A program made the translations under genes and the position numbers. A DNA stretch of 32,000 nucleotides, from positions 60,001 through 92,000 of the forward strand of contig NZ_NVQC01000008.1 in NCBI RefSeq assembly GCF_003044035.1, written 5' to 3'. Source of the stretch: Candidatus Methylomirabilis limnetica. GTDB lineage: Bacteria; Methylomirabilota; Methylomirabilia; Methylomirabilales; Methylomirabilaceae. This document shows positions 1,210 through 28,833 of the stretch, piece by piece (position 1 is the first letter of the stretch; the number at the start of each line of letters is the position of its first letter). The notes beneath the pieces are model-generated. The model had not been told where the DNA came from and made no database searches. It saw nothing but the letters and a program-made list of their open reading frames with translations.

Positions 1210-2679
1210 TTACACCCGCGCGAAATCGATGAACCCTTGCTCCACATTGGTGTCGATGAGCTCGACCCGGACCCGATCGCCGACGTCAAGCCCCTTGAAC
1301 CCACGGACAACCCTACCCTCTGCAGAGGGGTGAAGGATACGTACCCAGGTCCCTTTCGCGGCCGCACCGGTGACGATGGCGTCGAAGCGCTGTCCGATCT
1401 TCGATTCGAGGAGCAGCGCGGCCGCCGATTTCTGGACCCGTCGCTCGACCTTGCTGGCATTGTCTTCCTGTTCGGTGCAGTGCTGCGCGAGCGTGTTGAG
1501 CTCCTCAAGGCTGTACGGGGCCGCGTGCTCAGCCAGCGTGGCTTTGAGCAACCGCTGTGTGAGCAGATCGGGGAAGCGCCGGTTCGGGGCCGTGGAGTGC
1601 GTGTAGGCCGGAATCGCCAGGCCGAAGTGGCCCGGCGACGTCTGATCTGGCCCCTCTACCACGTACTCGCCCCGACCGATCAGCTTGACGACGGTCAGCG
1701 AGAGATCGGGAAACCGCACCGGGTCCGCCTGGCGCCGGGTCAATAGGAACGCCTCCAGGGCGGCGGCGTCCGGCTCGGGCGGGAGCCGTGCCCCCAGGTG
1801 GGCCGCCAACTCCACAATCCGTTGCCATCGGTCCGGCGAGCGCAAGATCCGGCGCAGGGACGGTAGGCTCCGCGCCTCGAGGTACCGAACCGTCACACGA
1901 TTCGCCGCGATCATGAGATCCTCAATGAGCTCCTGTGCCCGGTCCTTGTCCTCGACGCGCAGATCGGTCAGCACGTCGTCCTCCAACACGGCGCGCGGCT
2001 CGATCGTCTCCAGGCTGAGCGCGCCGTGCATGTGTCGCACGGTCCGGAGTATCTGAGCCACCCGATCCTGAGTGCGGAGCTGTTCGTCGAGCCCGACCAC
2101 GGTGGCCACTCGCGTAGGAGCGGGCCCCCTGCCATCGAGCCAGGCGGCCACGCTGTGATAGGTGAGCTTCGCGTGGTTGACGACCCAGGCGCGATAGATA
2201 TCCGAACTCCCGAGCGAGCCATCCTGGTTAACCACCATCTCGATCACGATGGCCAGACGGTCCTCATCCTCGTTCAACGACGTAAGATCGGTGGAGAGGA
2301 TGAGGGGGAGCATCGGGAAGATCTCGGCCGCCGTGTAGACGGACGTGGTGTTGTGCTGAGCGTGGGCATCGGTGGCGGACCCCTTGCGCACCAGCGCGTC
2401 GACGTCTGCGACCGCCACCAGGATCTTCACCACCTCCCTGCCGAGTGGCTCTGCGACCGTAAGCTGATCGAGGTCGCGGGAGTCGTCATTGTCGATCGAG
2501 CACCAGGGCAGGTGTCGCAGATCTCGGATGGATGGGGTACGCTCGGTTGCCGGACGTGTGAGTCCGCTGATCTCTCTCAAGACCGCAGGTGAAAAATCCG
2601 GAAGCAGTCCACGCGCTATCATCGCGCGGCGCGCAATCGCCTGTAGATCGTGACGATGTCTTTGTCCGGTGTGACTCAT
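1210..2679 (-). CDS. RNase II/R-family 3'-5' exoribonuclease (RNB domain + C-terminal S1 domain, no N-terminal cold-shock domains)
   Basis: 489-aa ORF. It has the RNB motif I 'SIDNDDSRDLDQL' and a C-terminal S1-like 'GQRFDAIVTGAAAKGTWVRILHPSAEGRVV'. An SD (TAGGAGGT) lies ~9 nt upstream of the ATG at 2679. Confidence 0.85.
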   Translation of the reverse strand: MSHTGQRHRHDLQAIARRAMIARGLLPDFSPAVLREISGLTRPATERTPSIRDLRHLPWCSIDNDDSRDLDQLTVAEPLGREVVKILVAVADVDALVRKGSATDAHAQHNTTSVYTAAEIFPMLPLILSTDLTSLNEDEDRLAIVIEMVVNQDGSLGSSDIYRAWVVNHAKLTYHSVAAWLDGRGPAPTRVATVVGLDEQLRTQDRVAQILRTVRHMHGALSLETIEPRAVLEDDVLTDLRVEDKDRAQELIEDLMIAANRVTVRYLEARSLPSLRRILRSPDRWQRIVELAAHLGARLPPEPDAAALEAFLLTRRQADPVRFPDLSLTVVKLIGRGEYVVEGPDQTSPGHFGLAIPAYTHSTAPNRRFPDLLTQRLLKATLAEHAAPYSLEELNTLAQHCTEQEDNASKVERRVQKSAAALLLESKIGQRFDAIVTGAAAKGTWVRILHPSAEGRVVRGFKGLDVGDRVRVELIDTNVEQGFIDFARV

Positions 2680-2747
2680 CTCACCGTCTACCTCCTATAC
2701 CAGCTAGCGCTCTAGCGCGTCGAGCCGAGTCATCGTATGGTTGGCGA

Positions 2748-5450
2748 TCACTTGCCGAGCCGTTCGATCATGACGGCGCAGACTTTGTACTCTGGGATCT
2801 TGGCGAAGGGGTCGTAGACCGAGTTGGTCAGGATATTGGCTCCCGACTCGGCAAGCTTCACGAATGGGATAAAGACCTCTCCTGCTCGTACGGCCTCGGT
2901 GATCTGGGCGTATGCGGTCAGCTCGCCACGACGGGAGGTGAGTCGAACGAGCGTCCCCTGATCGATGTCGAGTCGCCGGGCGTCTTCCGGGTTGATGGCG
3001 ACCTCGAGTCGTGGCGCCAGTTCGAGTAGTCCCTGGACGCGCCGGGTGAGCGTCCCACCGTGCCAGTGGTAGAGGATACGGCCGGTGTTCAGGAGAAACG
3101 GAAAATCGTGATCAGGTAGTTCGGCCGCCTCAGCCGTTTGCACGACGGGGACAAATTGTGCCTTCCCGATGGGGAACGACTCAGCATATAGGAAGCGGGT
3201 GCCCGGGTGATCTGATGTCGGACATGGCCACTGGATCCCCCCTTCCCGGTCTAGTCGGTCGTGAGAGATCCCGGCGAGAAACGGGACCAGTCTCGCCATC
3301 TCTTCGAAGACCTCAGCCGGGTGGGAGTACTCGAACCCCGAACTCAGCACACCAAGCCGTTGGGCTACCCGTCGTGCCAACTCAGATGTAATCCACCAGT
3401 CCGGCTTTGCCTCTCCCGGTGGATCGAGCGCCTTCCTTACTCGCTGAACCCGCCGCTCCGAGTTGGTGAACGTTCCCTCCTTCTCGGCAAAGGCTGCCGC
3501 GGGGAGGAAGACGTGGGCCAGTTCGGCGGTCTCGTGGAGGAACAGGTCCTGGACTACGAGGCAGTCGAGGTTGGAAAGCGCCCGTGTGGCGTGGTGAAGA
3601 TTGGGTTCTGTGAGGAGGGGGTTTTCGCCGACCATGTACATGGCTCGGATCGACCCATCTAGACATGCCTCTATCATTTCAGTAAGCGTTATTCCTGCAC
3701 TGTTGGGAATTCGAACGCCCCAGGCCGCCTCGAACTTTTCCAGGGCTTCAGGAGTGTAGCGCTGATAGCCAGGCAGATGGGTGGGGAGGCATCCGGCGTC
3801 ACAGCACCCCTGGACGTTATTCTGGCCCCTGAGCGGCGAGATACCGGAGCCGGCAAAACCCATCTGTCCGGTGACAAGGGAGAGGTTCAGGAGGGCATGA
3901 ACGTTGGCGGTGCCGTTGGTGTGCTGGGTTATCCCCATCCCCCAGATGAGGCAAGAACCGGCGAAGAGAGGCTTTGCATACCAGCGGGCAGCCTGAACGA
4001 TCTGCTCCTGTGGGACGCCGGTTACCTGTTCAGCGAATTGTAGTGTATACGGTTCCAGCGACTCGCGCCAGGCTTCGAATCCTTCGGTCCGGTTCCGCAT
4101 GAACTCAAGATTCGTTAGCCCTTCATCGATAATCACCCGAGCCATCGCGTTAAAGAGGGTTACGTCAGTACCGGGTCGCTGCTGCAGCCAGAGGTCCGCC
4201 TGGTCGCACAGCTCGATCCGTTTCGGGTTCACGACGATGAGCCTGGCGCCACGACTCACGGCTTGGCGAAGGCGGACGGCGATCACCGGATGGTTCGATG
4301 ACGGGTCGGAGCCGACGACCATGAGGCAGCCGGCCGCCTCGTAATCGTCGTAGGAGTTGGAGGTAGCCCCAGATCCCAGTGAGCGCAGCATTGCCACGAC
4401 CGAAGGCGAATGACAGAGGCGCGCGCAGTGGTCGATGTTGTTGGTGCCCATCACGGCCCGGACAAATTTCTGGACGATATAGCCATCCTCGTTGGTTGCC
4501 TTCGCCGAGGCGAGCGCCCCGAAGCGTCCCCGATTTGTGACCAATCCCTCCGCCGCAGCATCGAGCGCCTCGTCCCAGGATACTGGATGCCAACTCCCAT
4601 TGCGGCGCACCATGGGGGGAGTGATCCGGTCGGCTGCATGGATGAACCCTGTACCGAATCGGCCCTTGACACAGAGCATGCCGAGACTCGATCGATTCGT
4701 GGGGACATCGTCGGCTATCAGCGCGAGGCGACCATCGGCGCGAACGCGAAGGCGTATGCCGCAGCCGACGCCACAGTAGGGGCAGGTCGTCTCGACCTCC
4801 CGCATGACAGGCGCGGGCGCTTCCTTCGGCCGGATGGCCCCCGTGGGACACGTGGCGACGCACTGCCCGCACGAAGTACAGACGGAGGAAGCGAGCGATC
4901 CGTCGCCGAAGACTCCCACCGTAGTCCGGGCGCCTCGCCCCAACAAGGCGATAGCGCCGATCTGTTGGACGTCATTACAGGCTACGGTACAGCGCCCACA
5001 CAGGATGCAGGCATCCCGATCAAGGACGAAGAACGATTTGGTATCGTCCACAGGCGTGTGTCGCCATGGCATATGGCGGCGCTGGAAGAACCCGAGTCTG
5101 GCGCAGGCATCGGAGAGCTGACCAAACCCAGGCCGATTCAACGAGGGGGTCGCCATACCGCACGTGAGGTCAAGGACCCCGTTTCGGATCCGTGTGAGAA
5201 CGGGATCGTTAGTCGAGACCACCATCCCCTCGCGGGCGGGGAGATGACAGGAAGCTGGAAAGCCGTGCATCCCTTCGACCTTGACCAGGCAGGTCCGGCA
5301 GGCACCGAGGGCAGGGCGGTCGGGATCCTTGCAGAGCTGCGGGAGCGGGAGGCCAAGCCGGTTCACGGCGTCGAGGACCGTCGCGCCGGGTTGGACCGCC
5401 ACACTGGTTCCGTTGATAGTCAGACTGACGACCGCATCGCCCATCTTCAT
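2748..5450 (-). CDS. fdhA: NAD-dependent formate dehydrogenase alpha subunit (FdsA/FdhA-like, Cys-type)
   Basis: 900 aa. From the N-terminus: a NuoG-like 2Fe-2S motif (CKDP...CRTCLVKVEG...C), two 4Fe-4S ferredoxin motifs (CILCGRCTVAC, CTSCGQCVATC), a MopB cluster (CPYCGVGCG), an active-site region 'HCARLCHSPS' with Cys rather than a TGA/Sec codon, and a C-terminal molybdopterin dinucleotide-binding domain. Its ATG overlaps the upstream gene's stop (ATGA at 5447-5450). Confidence 0.92.
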   Translation of the reverse strand: MKMGDAVVSLTINGTSVAVQPGATVLDAVNRLGLPLPQLCKDPDRPALGACRTCLVKVEGMHGFPASCHLPAREGMVVSTNDPVLTRIRNGVLDLTCGMATPSLNRPGFGQLSDACARLGFFQRRHMPWRHTPVDDTKSFFVLDRDACILCGRCTVACNDVQQIGAIALLGRGARTTVGVFGDGSLASSVCTSCGQCVATCPTGAIRPKEAPAPVMREVETTCPYCGVGCGIRLRVRADGRLALIADDVPTNRSSLGMLCVKGRFGTGFIHAADRITPPMVRRNGSWHPVSWDEALDAAAEGLVTNRGRFGALASAKATNEDGYIVQKFVRAVMGTNNIDHCARLCHSPSVVAMLRSLGSGATSNSYDDYEAAGCLMVVGSDPSSNHPVIAVRLRQAVSRGARLIVVNPKRIELCDQADLWLQQRPGTDVTLFNAMARVIIDEGLTNLEFMRNRTEGFEAWRESLEPYTLQFAEQVTGVPQEQIVQAARWYAKPLFAGSCLIWGMGITQHTNGTANVHALLNLSLVTGQMGFAGSGISPLRGQNNVQGCCDAGCLPTHLPGYQRYTPEALEKFEAAWGVRIPNSAGITLTEMIEACLDGSIRAMYMVGENPLLTEPNLHHATRALSNLDCLVVQDLFLHETAELAHVFLPAAAFAEKEGTFTNSERRVQRVRKALDPPGEAKPDWWITSELARRVAQRLGVLSSGFEYSHPAEVFEEMARLVPFLAGISHDRLDREGGIQWPCPTSDHPGTRFLYAESFPIGKAQFVPVVQTAEAAELPDHDFPFLLNTGRILYHWHGGTLTRRVQGLLELAPRLEVAINPEDARRLDIDQGTLVRLTSRRGELTAYAQITEAVRAGEVFIPFVKLAESGANILTNSVYDPFAKIPEYKVCAVMIERLGK

Positions 5451-7678
5451 ACCTTTCCAGTGGTATCTGGCGGGATTGAGAGCATCTCTTCAGGAAACTG
5501 ATCAACCGCTGAAAGGAGGGATAGGGGCGCCGATTGACCGAGGCCGCACAGCGAGGCCAGCCGCACCACTTGGGCCAGTTCCTCGAGCTCTTGCCGCCGG
5601 CCAGAGTTCTGAGGCTGCTGAAGGAGCGCGAGCAGGCGACCTGTTCCCTCTCGGCATGGCGTGCATTTTCCACACGACTCCCGCGCATTGAAGGCGAGTA
5701 GTGTCCGAGTGACGTCGCCGATGGAGACGCTCTCGTCGAGACTAACCACACCTCCGCTTCCCGGAGAGAGGTTGCCGCCCGGGACCAGCGGCTCATCGAA
5801 CTGGCTCGGGTGGACGATCACGCCGGATGGTCCACCGACGAGCGCCGCCTTCAGGGGCCGTCCATTTCCACTTCCTCCGCCGATCTCTTCAATCAGGTGC
5901 CGGAGCGTCACGCCCATCGGCGCCTCTACGATCCCCGTTCTGGCAAGATGGCCGGAGAGGCCGAAGAGCTTGGTCCCCCGTCCTCCCCCGAGAGCCGCAA
6001 ACCATGCGGCCCCTCGACTCACAATAAGCGGCACAGCCGCAAGAGTCTCCACGTTGTTGATAACCGTAGGCTTGCCCCACAGCCCTGCCTCCACAGGGAA
6101 CGGAGGTTTAGGGCGAGGCATAGCGCGATTGCCCTCGATCGCTTCCATGAGCGCCGTCTCTTCTCCGAGGATAAAGCCGCCCGCGCCTCGCCGAAGTTCC
6201 AGGTGAAAGGAGAAATCGCTTCCGAGGATCCGCTCGCCAAGCAGTCCGGCCGCCTCAGCCGATCGAAGTGCGGTCCGCATCCGATGGGCCGAGAGATCCG
6301 CCTCACCGTTGATGAAGAGAATGCCGAGGCTGGTTCCAGAGGCAAAGGCTGCCAGGAGGATTCCTTCCAAGAGCCGATGGGGATCACCCTCCATCAGATG
6401 GCGGTCCTTGAAGATTCCAGGCTCACCCTCCTCGCCGTTGATCACGAGGTACTTGGGAGAGCCTGTTGAGTTGCGGCAGGCCTCCCATTTACGCGCGGCT
6501 CCGAAGTACGCCCCGCCACGCCCGGCAAGGCCGGACGCCTTAACCTCGCTGATGACGGCCAGCGGGTCGCCCTGTTCGAGGGTGCGAGCGAAAGCCGCGT
6601 AGCTCCCCTGACGCAAGGCGTCGGCCAGGTCGCTTACATCAACTACGCCACAGCGATCGAGGACAGCTCGATGCTGGCCACGAAGGAACGGCTCCTGGTC
6701 GAGGCCGGAGATTCCGCGCCAGGACGATTCCTGCCAGGCCACCGCCTCAATTCCAGAGGGTGGGCGGTCAGCCTTTAGCGCGGAGACCAACGGGATCACA
6801 TGATCGAGGGTCACCGCCTTGAGCGTAATTCTTGGCCAGCCGGGTCGGTAGAGTTCCACAACGGGAGCGGCGTAGCACATGCCGTTGCAGCCCCCCTCCA
6901 CGACGGTCGCGGACAGCCCTTGGCGCTCAACCTCCTCTGCCAGCCGATCCATAAGGATGTCGGCCCCGACCGACCCGCTACAGCTCCCCACGCCGACGAC
7001 GAGCCTGAGTTCTGAAGGATGCCTCACGAGGCCAGGTCTCACAACGGCCCACGAAAAGGCATCTTCACCCCCTCCTTTACCCTCCCCCCTCGGAGGGGGA
7101 GGGGCCGGGTGGGGGGGATTTTCTGAGGGCAGAGAGGTGAGGGATTGTTCGACAAGCCGCGCGAGGGCAGCCATCGGAGTGTCGCCAGTTGGCTTCAACA
7201 GGGACGGGACTGAGACGAGAGATTTTCGAGGAGATGGAGGATCAAAAATGCGGTCGAGCCGGTCCGTCCCGAGCCGTCCATAGCAGCGGTGATCCACCTC
7301 GACCACAGGGGCCACCCCACACCTGAAGAGGCAGTCGGCCTCTTCGATAGTGACGCTGTGATCCGGCGACGTCTCGCCGGCCATGAGCCCAAGGCGGTCC
7401 TGGAGGGCGTGGAGCAGTGTAAGACCACCCTGGATGCGACAGCTCACGCCTGTACACACCCTAACCAGGCGGGATCCCGGTTTGATAAGGCGGAACTCCG
7501 GGTACTGGGTGGCCACTCCGTACACCTCGCTCGTGGGAACCCGGAGATGTAGGGCTACCACCACGAGGCTCTCCGGACTGAGCCAGCCCTCGGCCTCTTG
7601 CGCCGTTTGCAATGCCGGCAGGAGCCAGGTCCGCTCCCGGGGGAACTGCGCAATTGCGTCGTTGCGTCGTTGCGTCAT
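5447..7678 (-). CDS. Fused NuoE-like (2Fe-2S) + thioredoxin-like ferredoxin + NuoF-like (FMN/NAD/4Fe-4S) diaphorase subunit of formate dehydrogenase (FdsG-FdsB fusion)
   Basis: 743 aa. NuoE-type Cys pattern (CTGVSC...CLFRC). NuoF motifs 'GLAGRGGAYFGAARKWE', 'NGEEGEPGIFKDRHLME' and 'ESCGKCTPCREG'. Translationally coupled to fdhA. Confidence 0.9.
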   Translation of the reverse strand: MTQRRNDAIAQFPRERTWLLPALQTAQEAEGWLSPESLVVVALHLRVPTSEVYGVATQYPEFRLIKPGSRLVRVCTGVSCRIQGGLTLLHALQDRLGLMAGETSPDHSVTIEEADCLFRCGVAPVVEVDHRCYGRLGTDRLDRIFDPPSPRKSLVSVPSLLKPTGDTPMAALARLVEQSLTSLPSENPPHPAPPPPRGEGKGGGEDAFSWAVVRPGLVRHPSELRLVVGVGSCSGSVGADILMDRLAEEVERQGLSATVVEGGCNGMCYAAPVVELYRPGWPRITLKAVTLDHVIPLVSALKADRPPSGIEAVAWQESSWRGISGLDQEPFLRGQHRAVLDRCGVVDVSDLADALRQGSYAAFARTLEQGDPLAVISEVKASGLAGRGGAYFGAARKWEACRNSTGSPKYLVINGEEGEPGIFKDRHLMEGDPHRLLEGILLAAFASGTSLGILFINGEADLSAHRMRTALRSAEAAGLLGERILGSDFSFHLELRRGAGGFILGEETALMEAIEGNRAMPRPKPPFPVEAGLWGKPTVINNVETLAAVPLIVSRGAAWFAALGGGRGTKLFGLSGHLARTGIVEAPMGVTLRHLIEEIGGGSGNGRPLKAALVGGPSGVIVHPSQFDEPLVPGGNLSPGSGGVVSLDESVSIGDVTRTLLAFNARESCGKCTPCREGTGRLLALLQQPQNSGRRQELEELAQVVRLASLCGLGQSAPLSLLSAVDQFPEEMLSIPPDTTGKV
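7065..7122 (-). repeat. G/C-rich palindromic repeat element, copy 1, in frame inside the diaphorase CDS
   Basis: The reverse complement reads 'gaaaatcccccccacccggcccctccccctccgaggggggagggtaaaggagggggtg', nearly identical to the intergenic copy at 8908..8964. The core is an inverted repeat CCCTCCCCC-TCCGA-GGGGGGAGGG. It encodes the linker 'ENPPHPAPPPPRGEGKGGGE'. Confidence 0.75.
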
Positions 7679-9109: not shown

Positions 9110-10327
9110 ATGCCGGGGAGATCCGAAAGGCGAGGAAAGGACAGCGCATCGGAGCTGGAAGAGCTCAGGCGGCGTTGCGAGGAGCTCAGCGCCTCGGTCG
9201 AGTCGATGCGAGCCTATCACGAGGATCTACTGGGAAGCCTGCAAGACGGCATTATCATTGTCGAGCCGGACGGACGTATCCGCTCAATCAATCAAGCAGC
9301 GGAGGAGCTGGCCAGACTATCGGCCCAGATATTTCACGGCAGGCCCTTCGAGCAGATATTTCCGAATGATCGCTCGCTGCAGGAGTTGGTACGGAAGACC
9401 ATGGAGAGCGGCCGGACCCATACTGACTTCGATGCCAGGCTGACGAGACAGGATGGCTCGCAGGTGGTTATCAGCGCCGTTGCCTCCCTCATCAGTGATG
9501 GCATGGGACAGGCGCGGGGCATGGTCCTGGCGCTCCGGGATCAGACAGGGATCAGGGAGCTTGAGGAGCGCCTATCGCGATCAGACCGCCTGGCAGCTCT
9601 CGGTACGGTTGCCACAGGGGTGGCCCACGAGATCCGAAATCCGCTGGCCGGCCTCAGGGGGGCGGCCCAGTTGCTCGAAGGCGAACGTGATTTTCCCCCC
9701 GCGCTTACAGAGTACACCTCGGTCATCATTAAAGAGGTTGATCGGCTAGGCGCGATCGTCGAGCAGCTTCTATCGTTTGCCACGCCACGAGGCCCAGTCC
9801 TTCGTTCATGCAATCTGCACGAGATCCTCGATAGCGTCCTCTTTTTAGAGCGGGCGCCGCTGTGCGCTGCCAATATCACTGTTCAGCGTCAGTACGACCC
9901 CCAGCTCCCTGAAATCCTCGCTGATCCCTCTGAAATTCGACAGCTCTTTCTGAACCTGATCTGTAATGGGGTAGAGGCGATGCCAGGCGGAGGTGAACTC
10001 ACCGTTCTAACATGGTATGAGCGGTCTGCCAAGCGTTGCGGGGGCCGATCGGTGGCCGTGGCCGATATTATCGATCAGGGAAGCGGGTTCGATCCTGAGA
10101 TCGAGCGCCACCTGTTCACCCCTTTCTTCACCACAAAAGAAAGGGGGACCGGGTTGGGGTTGGCCATCTGTCTCCGGATCGTGGAGGACCATGGCGGGGC
10201 CATGGAGGCGACAAGCTTAGCAGGCAGGGGCAGCAGGTTTCGAGTATGGCTTCCCTTGGCGAAGCAACCCGAAGCCGTGTTACCTCATGATGAACCTCAA
10301 CGAACCACGCAAGGTGTCAGGCCATGA
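9110..10327 (+). CDS. Cytoplasmic PAS-domain sensor histidine kinase (NtrB/AtoS-like)
   Basis: PAS segment (LLGSLQDGIIIVEPDGRIRSINQAAEEL), H-box 'HEIRNPLAGL', N box 'LNLICNGVEAM', G boxes 'DQGSGF' and 'GTGLGLAI'. No TM segments. I prefer the ATG at 9110 (SD GAAGAAGAGG upstream) over the ORF-track start at 9041. Confidence 0.85.
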   Translation: MPGRSERRGKDSASELEELRRRCEELSASVESMRAYHEDLLGSLQDGIIIVEPDGRIRSINQAAEELARLSAQIFHGRPFEQIFPNDRSLQELVRKTMESGRTHTDFDARLTRQDGSQVVISAVASLISDGMGQARGMVLALRDQTGIRELEERLSRSDRLAALGTVATGVAHEIRNPLAGLRGAAQLLEGERDFPPALTEYTSVIIKEVDRLGAIVEQLLSFATPRGPVLRSCNLHEILDSVLFLERAPLCAANITVQRQYDPQLPEILADPSEIRQLFLNLICNGVEAMPGGGELTVLTWYERSAKRCGGRSVAVADIIDQGSGFDPEIERHLFTPFFTTKERGTGLGLAICLRIVEDHGGAMEATSLAGRGSRFRVWLPLAKQPEAVLPHDEPQRTTQGVRP

Positions 10328-15767: not shown

Positions 15768-16709
15768 TCAGCGGGCCTTGCTTTTAGAGCGAGGGGCCGA
15801 CCGCCTCACTCGCTTACCCTTGTAATGGAACGTATCCTCAAGGTTCCCGTTTGGATCCTTGAGAAAGGCGGTGTCTTCGCTCGGATCCCACACTGGGCCC
15901 TGCGTGGACCAATGCACGACCAGTTGTCCCTTCGCAGCAACTCCATCCGTTCCACTTCCGTTGGACACGATGACCGTGTAACCCGGGTCCACGCTCACAT
16001 CAGGGAAGACGTATCTCTGTCCCGCCTCATTCGATAACACATAGCCGACCAGATTGATAGTGGCGTTGCTGAGATTGGCGATGCGAACGTAGGAGGGGTA
16101 CTGGTCGTCTTGAGTGGGATCAACAGGGTGCACGGTGGTGATTTTTAGGTCTCTGGCGCGACCTCGTGCAGACCACATACCGACCTTGTGTTGTTGCGCC
16201 TCGGCTTGGAGTCGAAGGAGCAGGGCGTGATGCTTCCGATTAGGTCCTATAAAGAAGGCCTGCGCCAAGCCCTCCTGAACCAACCTGGCATTGACCATCT
16301 CGTTGCCCGCAAAGACATAGGCCAGGACGCGGCCGTAACTGTCGGTTCTCTCCTGATCGAACTCCAAACGGATTTCCCGTCCCATGACGAGCGATTCGTT
16401 GAGCCGTTTGGCCTTCAAATAGAATGGCTCCTGAAATTCGGGCGAGTTGATGCCCAGATACCGAACTTTACGGCCATCTTCGAGAAGAATGGTATCCCCA
16501 TCGTAGACCCGCTTGACCTGGACGAGTTCATCTGCGACTACTGGAGCGGCGATTGCCACCGCGCCCTGACCACGTTCGTCCTTTGTATAGGCGCTACTAC
16601 AAGAAGTGCAGGACAGCACCCCGATGAGTACCAACACCGGTAGCCATAGGCGGCGCCAGCTCATTTGCCATGTACTCGACCGATCAATCCATTTCGACGT
16701 ATGTCTCAT
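15768..16709 (-). CDS. Lipoprotein thermonuclease (SNase) fused to a lamin-tail domain (LTD)
   Basis: SNase core 'VKRVYDGDTILLEDGRKVRYLGINSPE...YGRVLAYVF...VNARLVQEGLA'. C-terminal LTD-like 'VRIANLSNATINLVGYVLSNEAGQRYVFP...VIVSNGSG'. The lipobox 'LIGVLSC' suggests the true start may be the ATG at 16664 (MSWRRLWLPVLV...). Confidence 0.8.
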   Translation of the reverse strand: MRHTSKWIDRSSTWQMSWRRLWLPVLVLIGVLSCTSCSSAYTKDERGQGAVAIAAPVVADELVQVKRVYDGDTILLEDGRKVRYLGINSPEFQEPFYLKAKRLNESLVMGREIRLEFDQERTDSYGRVLAYVFAGNEMVNARLVQEGLAQAFFIGPNRKHHALLLRLQAEAQQHKVGMWSARGRARDLKITTVHPVDPTQDDQYPSYVRIANLSNATINLVGYVLSNEAGQRYVFPDVSVDPGYTVIVSNGSGTDGVAAKGQLVVHWSTQGPVWDPSEDTAFLKDPNGNLEDTFHYKGKRVRRSAPRSKSKAR

Positions 16710-25679: not shown

Positions 25680-25693
25680 TAAAGGCATAGTCG

Positions 25694-25746
25694 GAGCATC
25701 CCAGCCGTTCGTCCTGAGCATATCGAAGGAAACGGCTGGGATGCTC
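25694..25746 (+). terminator. Perfect 16-bp stem hairpin after the hemerythrin gene
   Basis: GAGCATCCCAGCCGTT-(21 nt)-AACGGCTGGGATGCTC, beginning 15 nt after the stop. No U-tract, so it could instead be a repeat or attachment-type structure. Confidence 0.45.
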
Positions 25747-25872
25747 AGGATATGCTTATCGAATCAGATGGTTCCTCGCTGTTTGGAGTTGGTATAACCT
25801 TGGAGTATACTCCATCGAGTCCGTCCATCTAATAACCGTTAGGAAGCCACTTTAACCACGAGGAGAAATACT

Positions 25873-25944
25873 GTGCAGGGATATGTTGCTTTAATTGGTA
25901 TGATCGTCCTTATACTACTGTATGTGTGGTTCCAGTTCGGGTGA
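25873..25944 (+). CDS. Candidate 23-aa hydrophobic micro-protein
   Basis: GTG start preceded by GAGGAG at ~7 nt. It encodes VQGYVALIGMIVLILLYVWFQFG*, a single TM-like helix, and lies in the AT-rich spacer. It is below the ORF-track length cutoff and is speculative. Confidence 0.3.
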   Translation: MQGYVALIGMIVLILLYVWFQFG

Positions 25945-26097
25945 CCAAAAAGTCTTTATGATAACGATGCTTCTGGCGGAAGCGTATTGATCGTCTTCGG
26001 CACATTGTATCTAAAACGTGGAAAGCAAGTTACAATCAGATTGGCTCAGATTTGGCCCATCACATTACGCCGCCGCAACGCACCCCGTGAAAAAACA

Positions 26098-26304
26098 TCA
26101 CGCCGCCTTTCCCGCTTCCTTGACTTCATCGACCTGATGAGGCTCGATCGCCGTCTCCTCAACCAGCTTGCCGTCACGCATCACGACCACGGCGGTGCCG
26201 GTTTGTCTCGCGATTTCGCGCGCTCGCCGTCCAGCCCTTAACAGCGCGGCGGGCGCAGCTTGCATGTCTGCATCCGGCAGCTTCGAAACCAGCGACTTGC
26301 TCAT
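26098..26304 (-). CDS. 68-aa protein translationally coupled downstream of the zeta-like kinase (candidate partner/antitoxin)
   Basis: 'MSKSLVSKLPDADMQAAPAALLRAGRRAREIARQTGTAVVVMRDGKLVEETAIEPHQVDEVKEAGKAA'. A perfect SD (AAGGAGGAAACCC-ATG) precedes it, and its ATG overlaps the kinase stop (ATGA at 26301-26304). It corresponds to the 3' portion of ORF-track ORF 26098..26733. Confidence 0.55.
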   Translation of the reverse strand: MSKSLVSKLPDADMQAAPAALLRAGRRAREIARQTGTAVVVMRDGKLVEETAIEPHQVDEVKEAGKAA

Positions 26305-26828
26305 GGGTTTCCTCCTTCGTCGTTCAGGATGGGGGTATCGCCGCTGTTGTCGAACCACTGCCAGTAATCGACGCGGTGGCGATAAATATCGTGAAAATTG
26401 CGCCGTCCGGCTGCAAAGCGGCGGCGAATGATCTCCGGCGGCACATCGTGCCCGCCCTGCCGCACCCGCATTGCTACGCGTGCGATCGCCTCTTCTGGGG
26501 TGGCCAACGACAGGAAAATCAGCTTCACCGCAAAGCCCGCCGCCCGCCAGCCGGTGATCATGCGCGCATAGGTCAGGCCTGACAGGGTTGTCTCGAAGGC
26601 GAAGCTGCGGCCTTCGGCAGCGTGGCGCGCGATTTCTTCCAGCATCAGGCGTCCGGCGCGGAACGCCACCGTTTCCGGCTGGAATGGCGACAGCCCGGCG
26701 GCGATCAGGTCGGCGTTGACGAACACCGGGCAACTAGCTTCCTTGGGTAGAAACTCGCGAGCGAAGGTTGTCTTGCCCGCCCCGTTGGGGCCGGCGATGA
26801 TGACGATCTTCCTGCCGCCCGTACTCAT
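26301..26828 (-). CDS. Zeta-toxin-like P-loop kinase / COG4185-type ATPase
   Basis: 175 aa. Walker A 'IAGPNGAGKTT', 'FVNADLIA', 'FAFETTLSG' and 'RVRQGGHDVPPEIIRRRF' fit the zeta toxin / predicted ABC-type ATPase family. Confidence 0.8.
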   Translation of the reverse strand: MSTGGRKIVIIAGPNGAGKTTFAREFLPKEASCPVFVNADLIAAGLSPFQPETVAFRAGRLMLEEIARHAAEGRSFAFETTLSGLTYARMITGWRAAGFAVKLIFLSLATPEEAIARVAMRVRQGGHDVPPEIIRRRFAAGRRNFHDIYRHRVDYWQWFDNSGDTPILNDEGGNP

Positions 26829-26983
26829 AGGGCGACCTCCCCGCTCATCAGGCGCGGCAGCAGCAGGTCGCGGGCGGCGCGAAGCTTTTGATTCTGCCTA
26901 TAAAGGCCGAAGTCCAGGTCGGTCTGGTCGAGCTGTAACAGCTCCTGCAGCAGGGTCTTCAGCTTGTCGTATTTCTGGCTCAT
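26825..26983 (-). CDS. 52-aa ORF coupled upstream of the zeta-like kinase; apparently chimeric (HsdS-like C-terminal tail)
   Basis: 'MSQKYDKLKTLLQELLQLDQTDLDFGLYRQNQKLRAARDLLLPRLMSGEVAL*'. Its stop overlaps the kinase ATG (ATGA at 26825-26828). The C-terminal 'QNQKLRAARDLLLPRLMSGE' resembles, from memory, the conserved C-terminal helix of type I R-M specificity subunits. Whether it is coding is uncertain. Confidence 0.4.
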   Translation of the reverse strand: MSQKYDKLKTLLQELLQLDQTDLDFGLYRQNQKLRAARDLLLPRLMSGEVAL

Positions 26984-27017
26984 CGTGGATCCCGTTCGTT
27001 GTTGGTCCTGCTCGCGT

Positions 27018-28265
27018 TCATGTCAGCTCCCACAGAGCGCGGATGGGGACCGCGAAGAGTCCCTCACCAAAGCCCAGGCTGGCCTCACCGTCATACAACA
27101 CCACGCCGGCGGCAAAGCGCTTGCCTGCAGCCTCCCGCAGCTTGCGCAAGCCGCGAAAATCCGAGGCCATCACCGTCGCAGCGGCTTTCACTTCCACCCC
27201 GACCAACTCACGACCGCCACGCTCCAGCACCAGATCGACCTCCACGCCATCCTTGTCGCGGAAGTGGTGGAAGCGGATGTCGTCGTCGCGCCAGCTCGCC
27301 TGTCGGCGCAGTTCCTGGTACACAAACGTTTCCAACAATTGCCCAAGGGTGCTACGGTCCAGCCACAGCAACTCGGCGTCAAGGCCAAGCAGAGCGCAGG
27401 CCACCCCGGTGTCCCCAAGATGCAACTTTGGCGTCTTGATGAGGCGGCTCAGCCGGTTGCTGTGCCAGGGCGCAAGTTGTTCGAGCAGAAAGACCCGCTC
27501 CAGCAGGGTGACATAGTCCTTGATGGTTGGGCGGCTCAACTGGAAGGGTGCCGCGAGATCGCTCACGTTCAGTAGCCGAGCCGTCTGGCCTGCCGCCAGC
27601 GCCAGCAGCCGTGGCAGTGCATCGAGCGAGGCGATGCGCGCCAGGTCGCGCACGTCGCGCTGGACCAGCGTCTCGATGTAGTCGCGGTACCATGTGGCAC
27701 GGCGGCGCGGGATGGCGCGGGCCAGCGCTGCGGGATATCCGCCTGCCGCGATGCGTGCCGCCAGTTCTTTACCCAGCCGCCCGTAGTTGCGTGCCTTGAA
27801 GCGACCCTCTAACAGCGCGTTGAGGAATCCCGGTGGGCGACCGGCCAGTTCGCACTGGGCCAGCGGGTGTAGCCGCAGAATCTCCATTCTTCCGGCCAGG
27901 GAATCGGCGAGCTTAGGAGCCAGCAGCACGTTTGCCGACCCCGTGAGCAGAAATCGACCGGGGCGGCGTCCGCGATCCACGGCCGCCTTGATGGCGGTGA
28001 ACAAGGTGGGAACCCGCTGGACCTCGTCCAGAATGGCGTGATCGGGCAGGTCGGCAACGAAACCAACGGGATCGGCAATAGCCGCGCCGAGAGCCACCGC
28101 GTCGTCGAAACTGAAGTAGGCGTAGCCTCTGGACTCGGCGATCCCTTGCGCGAGGGTCGTCTTGCCACACTGCCGCGGTCCGTGGATCAGGACAACGGGC
28201 GTGTCGGCCAGCGCGTTGATCAGGGCCGAGACGGCAAAACGGGGATGAAGGTGGTTTGTGCTCAT
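27018..28265 (-). CDS. AAA+ ATPase with DUF4143 domain and PD-(D/E)xK-like C-terminal motif
   Basis: Walker A 'HGPRQCGKTTLA', Walker B 'AILDEVQRVP', and a central wHTH-like DUF4143 region 'LNVSDLAAPFQLSRPTIKDYVTLLERVFLL'. The C-terminal 'DKDGVEVDLVLE...LVGVEVKAA' is nuclease-fold-like. I prefer the ATG at 28265 (MSTNHLHPRF...) over 28343. Confidence 0.85.
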   Translation of the reverse strand: MSTNHLHPRFAVSALINALADTPVVLIHGPRQCGKTTLAQGIAESRGYAYFSFDDAVALGAAIADPVGFVADLPDHAILDEVQRVPTLFTAIKAAVDRGRRPGRFLLTGSANVLLAPKLADSLAGRMEILRLHPLAQCELAGRPPGFLNALLEGRFKARNYGRLGKELAARIAAGGYPAALARAIPRRRATWYRDYIETLVQRDVRDLARIASLDALPRLLALAAGQTARLLNVSDLAAPFQLSRPTIKDYVTLLERVFLLEQLAPWHSNRLSRLIKTPKLHLGDTGVACALLGLDAELLWLDRSTLGQLLETFVYQELRRQASWRDDDIRFHHFRDKDGVEVDLVLERGGRELVGVEVKAAATVMASDFRGLRKLREAAGKRFAAGVVLYDGEASLGFGEGLFAVPIRALWELT

Positions 28266-28420
28266 GGCGGTCAAAAGTAACTCAAAACGTCGGCTGATTG
28301 CAAGGATTATATGCGTCTTATTGTAAGGATGAAGAGGAGCCAAGCGGCCGCCAGGTCGGAAGTTGGCCTAGCAACGCCGGGGAGTGCTCTCCAGCCTTTC
28401 GAGTCCGGCTCCTGCTCGCC

Positions 28421-28803
28421 TTACAGGACCATAGCCGATAGAGAAACTGGCCGCGCTCCTCGCCGCCGTCGGCCTGCGCCGCCTTGGGGGAGGACTTGGA
28501 GATCAGGTGGTAGCGGCCGATCGCGATCTCCGCGCTCGGCGGGGGGCTCCAGGTCGAAGGCTAGTGCGGCATCGTAGAAGCGGGCGCGGTCGTAGAGCAG
28601 GAAACGGGTCAGTGACCAGAAGCGCTGGCCGAAACGATCGAGCTGAGCCTTCGTATTGTCGAGCTGCGGTCGCAGGCGCTGACGCACGGCCTCGTCGAAG
28701 TGCTTGAACAGTGTTCTACGCGTGTCGTCCATCCGCGTGCGGATGCTCTCGTCCATCTCTGCCTGCAGAGCGCGGAACGCGGTGTCGATTCCTACAAGTC
28801 AGA
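28421..28803 (-). pseudogene. 5'-truncated, frameshifted gene fragment (unknown large protein, possibly defence/R-M associated)
   Basis: A protein-like reading '...LVGIDTAFRALQAEMDESIRTRMDDTRRTLFKHFDEAVRQRLRPQLDNTKAQLDRFGQRFWSLTRFLLYDRARFYDAALAFDLEPP' degenerates into an R/G/P-rich tail right after a C6 run (28541-28546). The neighbouring frame continues sensibly ('PSAEIAIGRYHLISKSSPKAAQADGGEERGQFLYRL'). Confidence 0.45.
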
Positions 28804-28833
28804 TAAGCGCCGCGCGTCAGAGCTGCCCATCCA

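Follow-up and report, generated by a model that had tools for sequence, protein, structure and literature searches.

An eroded defence islet in Candidatus Methylomirabilis limnetica with a zeta-like kinase and its small downstream partner, a probable toxin-first toxin-antitoxin pair

The stretch of DNA analysed here (the window) comprises 32,000 nt of Candidatus Methylomirabilis limnetica (GCF_003044035.1, contig NZ_NVQC01000008.1, positions 60,001-92,000 of the forward strand). On its minus strand lie four open reading frames (ORFs) of 415, 52, 175 and 68 amino acids (aa), of which the first encodes a DUF4143 ATPase and the third a zeta-like P-loop kinase. An initial annotation of the sequence had taken all four as a candidate atypical toxin-antitoxin (TA) or abortive-infection module, in which the ATPase is followed by a translationally chained cassette of small ORF, kinase and small ORF. 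The elements of the block, in the direction of reading, are:

27018-28265, minus strand: ATPase ORF, 415 aa counted from its ATG
26825-26983, minus strand: 52-aa ORF
26301-26828, minus strand: kinase ORF, 175 aa
26311-26316, minus strand: AGGAGG, Shine-Dalgarno (SD) sequence of the 68-aa ORF, read from the sequence within the kinase coding region, 6 nt before the ATG
26098-26304, minus strand: 68-aa ORF

As a description of the locus, the initial annotation was accurate. The four coordinates were confirmed from the sequence, as were the 34 nt that separate the ATPase stop from the start of the 52-aa ORF, the two ATGA start/stop overlaps that join the 52-aa ORF to the kinase gene (26825-26828) and the kinase gene to the 68-aa ORF (26301-26304), and the perfect SD sequence inside the kinase gene. 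Its Pfam-type domain calls also hold for the ATPase (AAA_14 and DUF4143) and for the kinase (Zeta_toxin and AAA_33). The block has a G+C content of 64% (window, 59%) and borders on a spacer, rightly described as AT-richer, of 44% G+C over 25750-26100. A terminator scan found terminator-like sites at chance rate only, with no convincing one between the ORFs. Rfam returned no RNA family between 25000 and 29000 at E-values up to 0.1, which gives no indication of an RNA antitoxin or a riboswitch.

The 52-aa ORF, which had been counted as a member of the cassette and a possible antitoxin, divides into two parts of different origin:

26897-26983, minus strand: 5' part, matching codons 1-29 (MSQKYDKLKTLLQELLQLDQTDLDFGLYR) of a large type III/DrmMI-like N6_N4 DNA methyltransferase
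26825-26896, minus strand: 3' part, matching the last 23 codons and stop of a type I HsdS (QNQKLRAARDLLLPRLMSGEVAL); the stop overlaps the kinase ATG

Residues 3-30 match positions 2-29 of the 1057 of the PADLOC profile MTase_III, while residues 27-52 match the extreme C-terminus of Specificity_I (positions 372-396 of 403, E-value = 7e-7). As a reference for the intact arrangement we used the contig of a close relative (L001), which encodes a 94% identical 68-aa protein. According to blastn, 26081-26887 corresponds to 5418-6224 of L001 with 96% identity, covering the last 62 nt of hsdS, the kinase gene and the small gene, and 26901-26984 corresponds to 9514-9597 with 92% (91.7%) identity, that is, to the first 83 nt of the gene of a 1080-aa N6_N4_Mtase. 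The junction between the two is thereby located to within about 12 nt, and tblastn places the HsdS-like part on residues 325-350 of the L001 HsdS. The sole full-length database match is an identical 'hypothetical protein [Candidatus Methylomirabilis limnetica]', and all other matches are HsdS C-termini ending ...QNQKLRAARDLLLPRLMSGE... Because the two PADLOC halves, the two L001 blocks and the HsdS-only partial matches agree, the ORF is an in-frame fusion scar of methyltransferase residues 1-29 and the last 23 residues of HsdS; it has neither the two target-recognition domains nor the conserved regions of an HsdS. The ATGA at 26825-26828 is the ancestral hsdS/kinase junction. The two overlaps do exceed chance, for a historical reason: one is a trait of the kinase family and the other was inherited from that junction. 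Selection as the cause of the in-frame fusion was considered and rejected, since by chance one deletion in three keeps the frame, and an epsilon-like or omega-like antitoxin was ruled out by the chimera evidence. The proposed tripartite layout of small ORF, kinase and small ORF is therefore illusory, since its first member is a methyltransferase::HsdS scar with no full-length homologue beyond one species. Today the scar ORF would be merely an accidental leader that brings ribosomes to the kinase start.

Gene order in L001 is hsdM, hsdS, kinase, 68-aa gene, a 966-aa SNF2 helicase and the 1080-aa N6_N4 methyltransferase; the kinase gene overlaps hsdS by 4 nt, and the helicase and methyltransferase genes are 40 nt apart. 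The L001 helicase reaches 662 bits against PADLOC DrmD and the methyltransferase 563 bits against MTase_III; what the window has lost is therefore a type I M/S pair together with a helicase/methylase pair of DISARM- or type III-like character. The DNA of the kinase and small genes, 96% identical between L001 and the window, suggests a recent exchange between co-resident organisms. A piece of the helicase gene persists upstream of the ATPase and bears out the earlier observation of decayed gene fragments nearby:

28432-28789, minus strand: DrmD-like SNF2 helicase pseudogene fragment, residues 614-731 of 966, frameshift near 28533-28541

In tblastn the fragment is 73% and 65% identical to the L001 helicase in two frames, and in blastn 28459-28789 corresponds to 8413-8739 of L001, within the helicase interior, with 72.5% identity. 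The region 25680-28833 is thus an eroded defence islet of about 3 kb between an ammonium-transporter gene and a hemerythrin/DUF2249 gene, in which deletions have left the frameshifted helicase fragment, the 52-codon fusion and the intact kinase and 68-aa genes. Of a DISARM class 1 system only about 118 frameshifted helicase codons and 29 methylase codons are left in the window, whereas the DISARM-like helicase and methylase are intact in L001. The window order (helicase fragment, ATPase, methyltransferase start::hsdS end, kinase, small gene) cannot arise from the L001 order by a single deletion, so either an ancestor with the helicase/methylase pair upstream of hsdMS or a rearrangement has to be assumed. 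The metagenome ERZ27287891 holds both arrangements, the intact one (L001, k141_35231) and the eroded one of Methylomirabilis (L090, k141_100247).

Concerning the ATPase, Pfam gave 162 bits for DUF4143 and 92 bits for AAA_14. Walker A (GPRQCGKT, residues 29-36) and Walker B (ILDE, 78-81) are present, and the PD-(D/E)xK-like motif EVDLV...VEVK, pointed out previously, was located at residues 342-360. The protein matches PADLOC PDC-S01 (PDLC04790), an AAA_14 + DUF4143 candidate single-gene system, end to end (561 bits, residues 5-413 on profile positions 10-419 of 422). We accordingly list it as a putative stand-alone candidate defence gene of the PDC-S01 type. Running PADLOC, as had been proposed for the contig, thus gave a system match for the ATPase; the kinase and the small ORF received weak, generic hits only, and the full-length likeness to PDC-S01 is confined to the ATPase. 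The ATPase segment, about 26985-28431 with its own upstream region, separates the helicase fragment from the methyltransferase start.

A combined defence function of the ATPase and the cassette, with all four ORFs forming one system, would be in line with the single strand, the tight packing with its 34-nt gap and two ATGA overlaps, the lack of a convincing internal terminator, the stable arrangement of the block on 24 contigs, and the presence of DUF4143 ATPases beside the module at two other places (L003-L006 and L024). Co-occurrence was examined in 80 loci, with up to 6 kb on each side, sampled from the kinase relatives (at least 483) confirmed in a scan of one genome per species across 185,579 species. 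A relative of the ATPase was found near the kinase in 1 of the 80 (L024), and DUF4143 does not figure among the genes that often directly adjoin the kinase pair (upstream n = 76, downstream n = 77). Given this rarity, the window ATPase lies next to the kinase pair without belonging to it; an absence of co-occurrence had been named beforehand as the outcome that would refute a joint function. In L003-L006 (4808-6195), just 30 nt separate the end of a DUF4143 ATPase gene from an orphan gene for the small partner, and some 25 nt from the kinase 3' end are all that is left in the gap. A DUF4143 gene has here reached the module independently a second time, taking the place of the kinase rather than accompanying it. 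The 24 contigs, from several metagenomes, carry the exact 52-aa ORF, with gene order and flanks alike where examined, which points to a single population; they therefore lend no independent support. Together with the scar nature of the 52-aa ORF in a single species, these co-occurrence results have largely refuted the four-ORF system already, and we regard it as extremely improbable. The ATPase would act independently, and any sharing of a transcript with the pair would probably be positional only.

The kinase was recognised by Pfam as Zeta_toxin (PF06414) with 43.0 bits, above the gathering cutoff of 22.3, over residues 7-167 (profile positions 17-193 of 199), and as AAA_33 with 40 bits. Its earlier assignment to the zeta family is supported by this score and by a zeta/PezT-like fold in the AlphaFold2 model (mean predicted local distance difference test, pLDDT, 89). 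The family alignment shows no variation in Walker A (GPNGAGKT, residues 13-20) or at the catalytic Asp (D40), and hhalign sets K19 against K46 and D40 against the catalytic D67 of the pSM19035 zeta. The top Foldseek matches of the model were PezT (2p5t_B, E-value = 2e-7, query template-modelling score (TM) 0.70), AvrRxo1 (4z8q_A, E-value = 7e-7), zeta (1gvn_B, TM 0.72) and the Clostridium thermocellum Pnk (4gp7, TM 0.65-0.67 over nearly the whole length), with query TM between 0.65 and 0.74; 3q8x reached 0.73-0.74. PDB sequence searches with the single sequence and with a profile gave P-loop segments and a weak Pnkp1 alignment and nothing else. Judged by its motifs and model, the protein is a minimal P-loop kinase of the zeta/PezT/AvrRxo1/Pnk type.

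The GTXR motif, defined as the binding motif for UDP-N-acetylglucosamine (UDP-GlcNAc, UNAG) and corresponding to zeta G117-R120 (PMC6362051), is absent from the kinase: hhalign sets E79-T80-T81 and a gap opposite zeta E116-G117-T118-G119-R120, and the family consensus at this site is FETTLSG (ETTLSG in the window). Because the motif is missing, the substrate is presumably other than UDP-GlcNAc. The kinase has more than 8000 relatives, the best 120 of which are 74-99% identical, and in the 80 sampled loci, from many phyla, identity amounts to 64-84%. An alignment of 33 sequences contains 63 invariant columns, the kinase being far more conserved than its partner. NCBIfam gave no specific match for any of the four proteins of the block, and a literature search under the name COG4185 found no papers.

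The downstream 68-aa protein had been proposed as a coupled partner, and this held. It has 484 homologues at E-values up to 0.01, and an exhaustive profile search extended the family to 1045 clusters at 50% identity, of which the 150 best-scoring all consist of stand-alone proteins of 40-157 aa. Its AlphaFold2 model (pLDDT 75) has a helix at residues 11-35, a beta-hairpin at 38-51 and a disordered tail; positions D11, D13, A20, R23, A24, A32, T35, T37 and G45 are near-invariant. The ratio of nonsynonymous to synonymous substitution rates between pairs of small genes has a median of 0.5 and lies between 0.2 and 0.9 in comparisons with the window copy. Profile and structure searches, which had been suggested for both small products, thus separated them: the 52-aa product resolved into HsdS and methyltransferase fragments, and the 68-aa product into a conserved family. 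For the latter, neither Pfam nor NCBIfam holds a family (Pfam has none for the 52-aa ORF either), there was no PDB sequence match, Foldseek found no PDB fold match with an E-value below 1, and no similarity to epsilon was seen (hhalign E-value = 0.77). Searched against the PADLOC v2 defence models, kinase and partner gave nothing but weak, generic hits.

The 80 loci stem from Beta- and Gammaproteobacteria, Latescibacterota, Acidobacteriota, Binatia, Nitrospirota, Melainabacteria, Planctomycetota and Desulfobacterota. In 78 of them a homologue of the small protein, detected by hidden Markov model (HMM), follows the kinase directly on the same strand. Of the other two, one (L059) has a truncated partner limited to the helix part, and one (L074) has the two joined in frame; the latter fusion, a 242-aa ORF at 5983-6711, recalls the fused zeta system EzeT, although an assembly error is possible. 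In 66 of 76 loci kinase and small gene share a 4-nt overlap, and in 65 of 76 the small gene is preceded by an SD-like motif. Outside this sample, a 48% identical kinase is found on Legionella and Crocosphaera plasmids, where a downstream ORF of 64-66 aa overlaps it and shows the helix-then-hairpin pattern (HMM E-value = 2e-4 for Crocosphaera, no significant match for Legionella). Next to these pairs lies a Tn3 transposase or integrase, not restriction-modification genes. The kinase and 68-aa genes thus make up a self-contained two-gene module that moves horizontally, occurs in many phyla and on plasmids, and sits in contexts rich in defence and TA genes. The window pair shows the features of this family throughout (kinase of about 175 aa with FETTLSG and GGHxVP, partner of 60-70 aa, 4-nt overlap) and is an ordinary, slightly orphaned member of it. 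The family is annotated solely as 'zeta toxin family protein' and 'hypothetical protein'.

Decay of the module is asymmetric. The kinase gene is 5'-truncated in L002, deleted in L003-L006 and in an orphan copy in L014, and broken by in-frame stop codons in L024 and L031, with the small gene intact in all of them; the converse, a damaged partner beside a retained kinase, was seen once and in part (L059). In L014 the orphan partner gene (359-568), beside which about 20 nt of kinase 3' sequence persist, precedes a complete pair at 2473-3260. Two complete pairs occur within 2 kb in L041 (4264-4952 and 5992-6740).

The closest counterpart in a model organism is sll8004-ssl8003 on plasmid pSYSG of Synechocystis sp. 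PCC 6803, an orthologous pair with a kinase 65% identical over 97% of its length and a partner (ssl8003) of 59 aa that belongs to the same family as the 68-aa protein (HMM E-value = 1e-14). It shares the 4-nt ATGA overlap and the AGGAGG ribosome-binding site with the window pair, and it likewise stands in a type I restriction-modification operon after hsdS (sll8006). In pSYSG, however, hsdS is separated from the kinase gene by one for an MNT-type nucleotidyltransferase (ssl8005), and DarT/DarG-like genes come after the pair, while in the window hsdS is cut down to its last 23 codons. The pSYSG operon (L095, NC_005231.1 1-9348) reads DUF433/PIN, hsdS, orphan MNT, kinase, partner, DUF4433 (DarT-like) and macro-domain (DarG-like), and the orphan MNT nucleotidyltransferase gene overlaps the kinase start.

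Among characterised systems, AvrRxo1-Arc1 of Xanthomonas and Acidovorax, whose toxin is a zeta-like NAD kinase, shares the zeta-like fold, the toxin-first order and a small partner directly downstream; there, too, the partner is intact where the kinase is inactivated (PMC4938570). A downstream partner had been held to depart from known layouts, yet this order is precedent for it within the superfamily. AvrRxo1 differs in having about 420 aa and a type III secretion signal, against the 175-aa minimal domain of the window kinase, and Arc1 (98 aa) has no detectable relation to the 68-aa partner, whose model had no Foldseek match in the PDB with an E-value below 1. Epsilon/zeta and PezAT share the Pfam Zeta_toxin domain, the fold (query TM about 0.70-0.74), Walker A and the catalytic Asp with the window kinase, but zeta and PezT have 240-290 aa and the GTXR motif, as opposed to 175 aa without it. 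Moreover, the window partner is encoded downstream, is unrelated to epsilon and lacks a helix-turn-helix or ribbon-helix-helix (RHH) regulator part. The upstream position, taken by an antitoxin of the epsilon/PezA type in those systems, is held here by the methyltransferase::HsdS scar, and no omega or other regulator gene is present that would make a tripartite omega-epsilon-zeta system, the 52-aa ORF consisting of HsdS and methyltransferase fragments only. Additionally, Rv0366c-Rv0367c of Mycobacterium tuberculosis shares the short kinase with Walker A and catalytic Asp and no GTXR (PMC6362051). Its antitoxin, Rv0367c, differs from the window partner in being encoded upstream, in its 129 aa and in an RHH-like N-terminal domain.

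From the linkage, the coupling, the mobility, the residence on plasmids and in defence islands, the intact catalytic motifs, the decay asymmetry and the parallels with AvrRxo1 and Rv0366c, we infer that the kinase and 68-aa genes form a toxin-first type II TA pair. The kinase is the probable toxin and the 68-aa protein the probable antitoxin, and a TA function for the pair is a reasonable reading. Both parallels support it: in avrRxo1/arc1 the antitoxin gene also lies downstream and the same decay asymmetry has been reported (PMC4938570), and the short, GTXR-less zeta-like kinase Rv0366c is bacteriostatic and neutralised by its neighbour Rv0367c (PMC6362051). In such a pair the kinase would phosphorylate an essential metabolite or a nucleic-acid end, not UDP-GlcNAc, and the small protein would neutralise it by direct binding, probably laying its conserved acidic/basic helix across the P-loop and substrate cleft in the manner of epsilon, PezA and Arc1. 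Addiction would account for the survival of these two genes alone when the rest of the island eroded. For the account as a whole, that is, an eroded islet with an independent ATPase, a scar ORF and a kinase/partner pair that is probably a toxin-first TA system, we estimate a probability of roughly 0.6.

The genomic surroundings of the pair allow a different role. Immediate upstream neighbours (n = 76) include N6_N4_Mtase (8), Methylase_S (5), HsdM (3), DUF1016/YhcG (4) and DUF4391 (2), and downstream neighbours (n = 77) include ResIII (9) and HSDR_N (5), the remainder being heterogeneous; about a quarter of the pairs lie inside restriction-modification operons. Such operons are of type I or type III-like, and in them the pair is coupled in translation to the preceding gene. 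In 19 of the 80 loci the kinase start overlaps the preceding gene by exactly 4 nt, and the pair follows hsdS in both L001 and pSYSG. These neighbours and overlaps, as well as a partner without a DNA-binding domain and a pair often without an obvious promoter of its own, would fit an accessory guard of restriction-modification or DISARM systems, comparable to PrrC in the EcoprrI locus, instead of a plain addiction module. The kinase would stay silent while the host system is intact and fire when a phage disables that system, and the window copy would be an orphan that outlasted its host system. On the other hand, the majority of loci lie outside restriction-modification operons, the stand-alone plasmid copies adjoin a transposase or integrase, kinase and partner drew only weak, generic hits in PADLOC v2, and the window pair is intact despite the loss of the restriction-modification genes. 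We judge this role unlikely; it is, moreover, compatible with a TA mechanism and not exclusive of it. A bolder version, which we hold to be quite unlikely, would make the pair a translationally slaved sentinel of restriction-modification/DISARM operons, in which a partner with a new fold restrains a kinase with a new substrate until loss of the operon or its shut-off by a phage releases it.

Several observations weigh against a TA pair. The small protein has no recognisable DNA-binding fold. In 51 of the 80 loci an upstream frame on the same strand stops no more than about 40 nt short of the kinase start or runs into it, the 19 with the exact 4-nt overlap among them; in most cases the pair thus seems to have no promoter to itself, which is atypical for autoregulated type II TA systems. 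The conservation of the kinase (65-90% across phyla) is unusually high for a TA toxin, the hhalign comparison of its profile with zeta is weak (probability 16%), and its best sequence-level PDB match is the polynucleotide kinase Pnkp1 (E-value = 0.037). Furthermore, Synechocystis sll8001-ssl8005 were described only as 'related to TA modules' and fell short of the authors' own requirements (Kopfmann et al., PMC4963859). Because of the missing DNA-binding fold, the upstream coupling and the kinase conservation, the guard role stays in play and, less likely, so does a benign enzyme.

According to the latter explanation, the kinase would be an enzyme without toxicity, acting for example on nucleotides or small molecules, or as a polynucleotide 5'-kinase in the repair of RNA or DNA ends, and the partner would be a regulatory or specificity subunit. 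The very strong conservation across phyla, the AAA_33 match, the near full-length structural likeness to the Clostridium thermocellum Pnk, the Pnkp1 profile match and the absence of the GTXR of UNAG-kinase toxins are all in keeping with such an enzyme. They have to be set against a patchy, horizontally transferred distribution (the at least 483 relatives in 185,579 species, one genome each), residence in defence islands and on plasmids, an obligatory small partner with the translational coupling typical of TA pairs, damaged copies that lose the kinase and retain the partner, and the bacteriostatic effect of a related short kinase without GTXR (PMC6362051). We find a benign enzyme distinctly unlikely and keep the toxin-first TA pair as the favoured reading.

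The interest of these results rests with the two-gene family rather than with the window locus. The analysis singles out a strictly linked family composed of a minimal zeta-like kinase without the UDP-GlcNAc motif and a helix/hairpin partner of 60-70 aa. A survey of orphan zeta toxins (2023) sought antitoxins in upstream genes only (PMC10532202), so that a downstream partner would have been missed. Synechocystis pSYSG sll8004-ssl8003 offers a tractable representative in a model organism, and knowing the substrate, together with the reason for residence in restriction-modification operons, would widen the known range of zeta-type kinase toxins. Two lessons for annotation also emerge: small ORFs in a tight chain of overlaps can be relics of deleted neighbours and not parts of a system, and a DUF4143 ATPase can stand beside a toxin-like gene without any functional link between them.

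Apart from the islet genes, three further features of the region were recorded:

28306-28311, minus strand: perfect TATAAT, a possible -10 element, 41 nt upstream of the ATPase ATG
25680-26097, no strand: low-GC spacer, 46% G+C overall, between the islet and the convergent hemerythrin/DUF2249 gene
25685-25755: inverted repeat with 25-nt arms (88% complementary), a 21-nt loop and a nested perfect 10-nt pair

The TATAAT, noted earlier at about 40 nt from the ATPase start, is one of two in the 32-kb window; it has no acceptable -35 element, and a two-hexamer promoter scan found no site. The inverted repeat lies directly 3' of the hemerythrin gene stop, in the 44% G+C spacer, and is probably a terminator for convergent transcripts. 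The flanking genes (amt, hemerythrin/DUF2249, a COX1-family gene and a SoxA/TsdA cytochrome gene) are chromosomal core genes. Finally, a 313-aa ORF at 15768-16709 on the minus strand, unrelated to the four-ORF block, contains staphylococcal-nuclease and lamin-tail domains, which suggests a secreted or surface nuclease.

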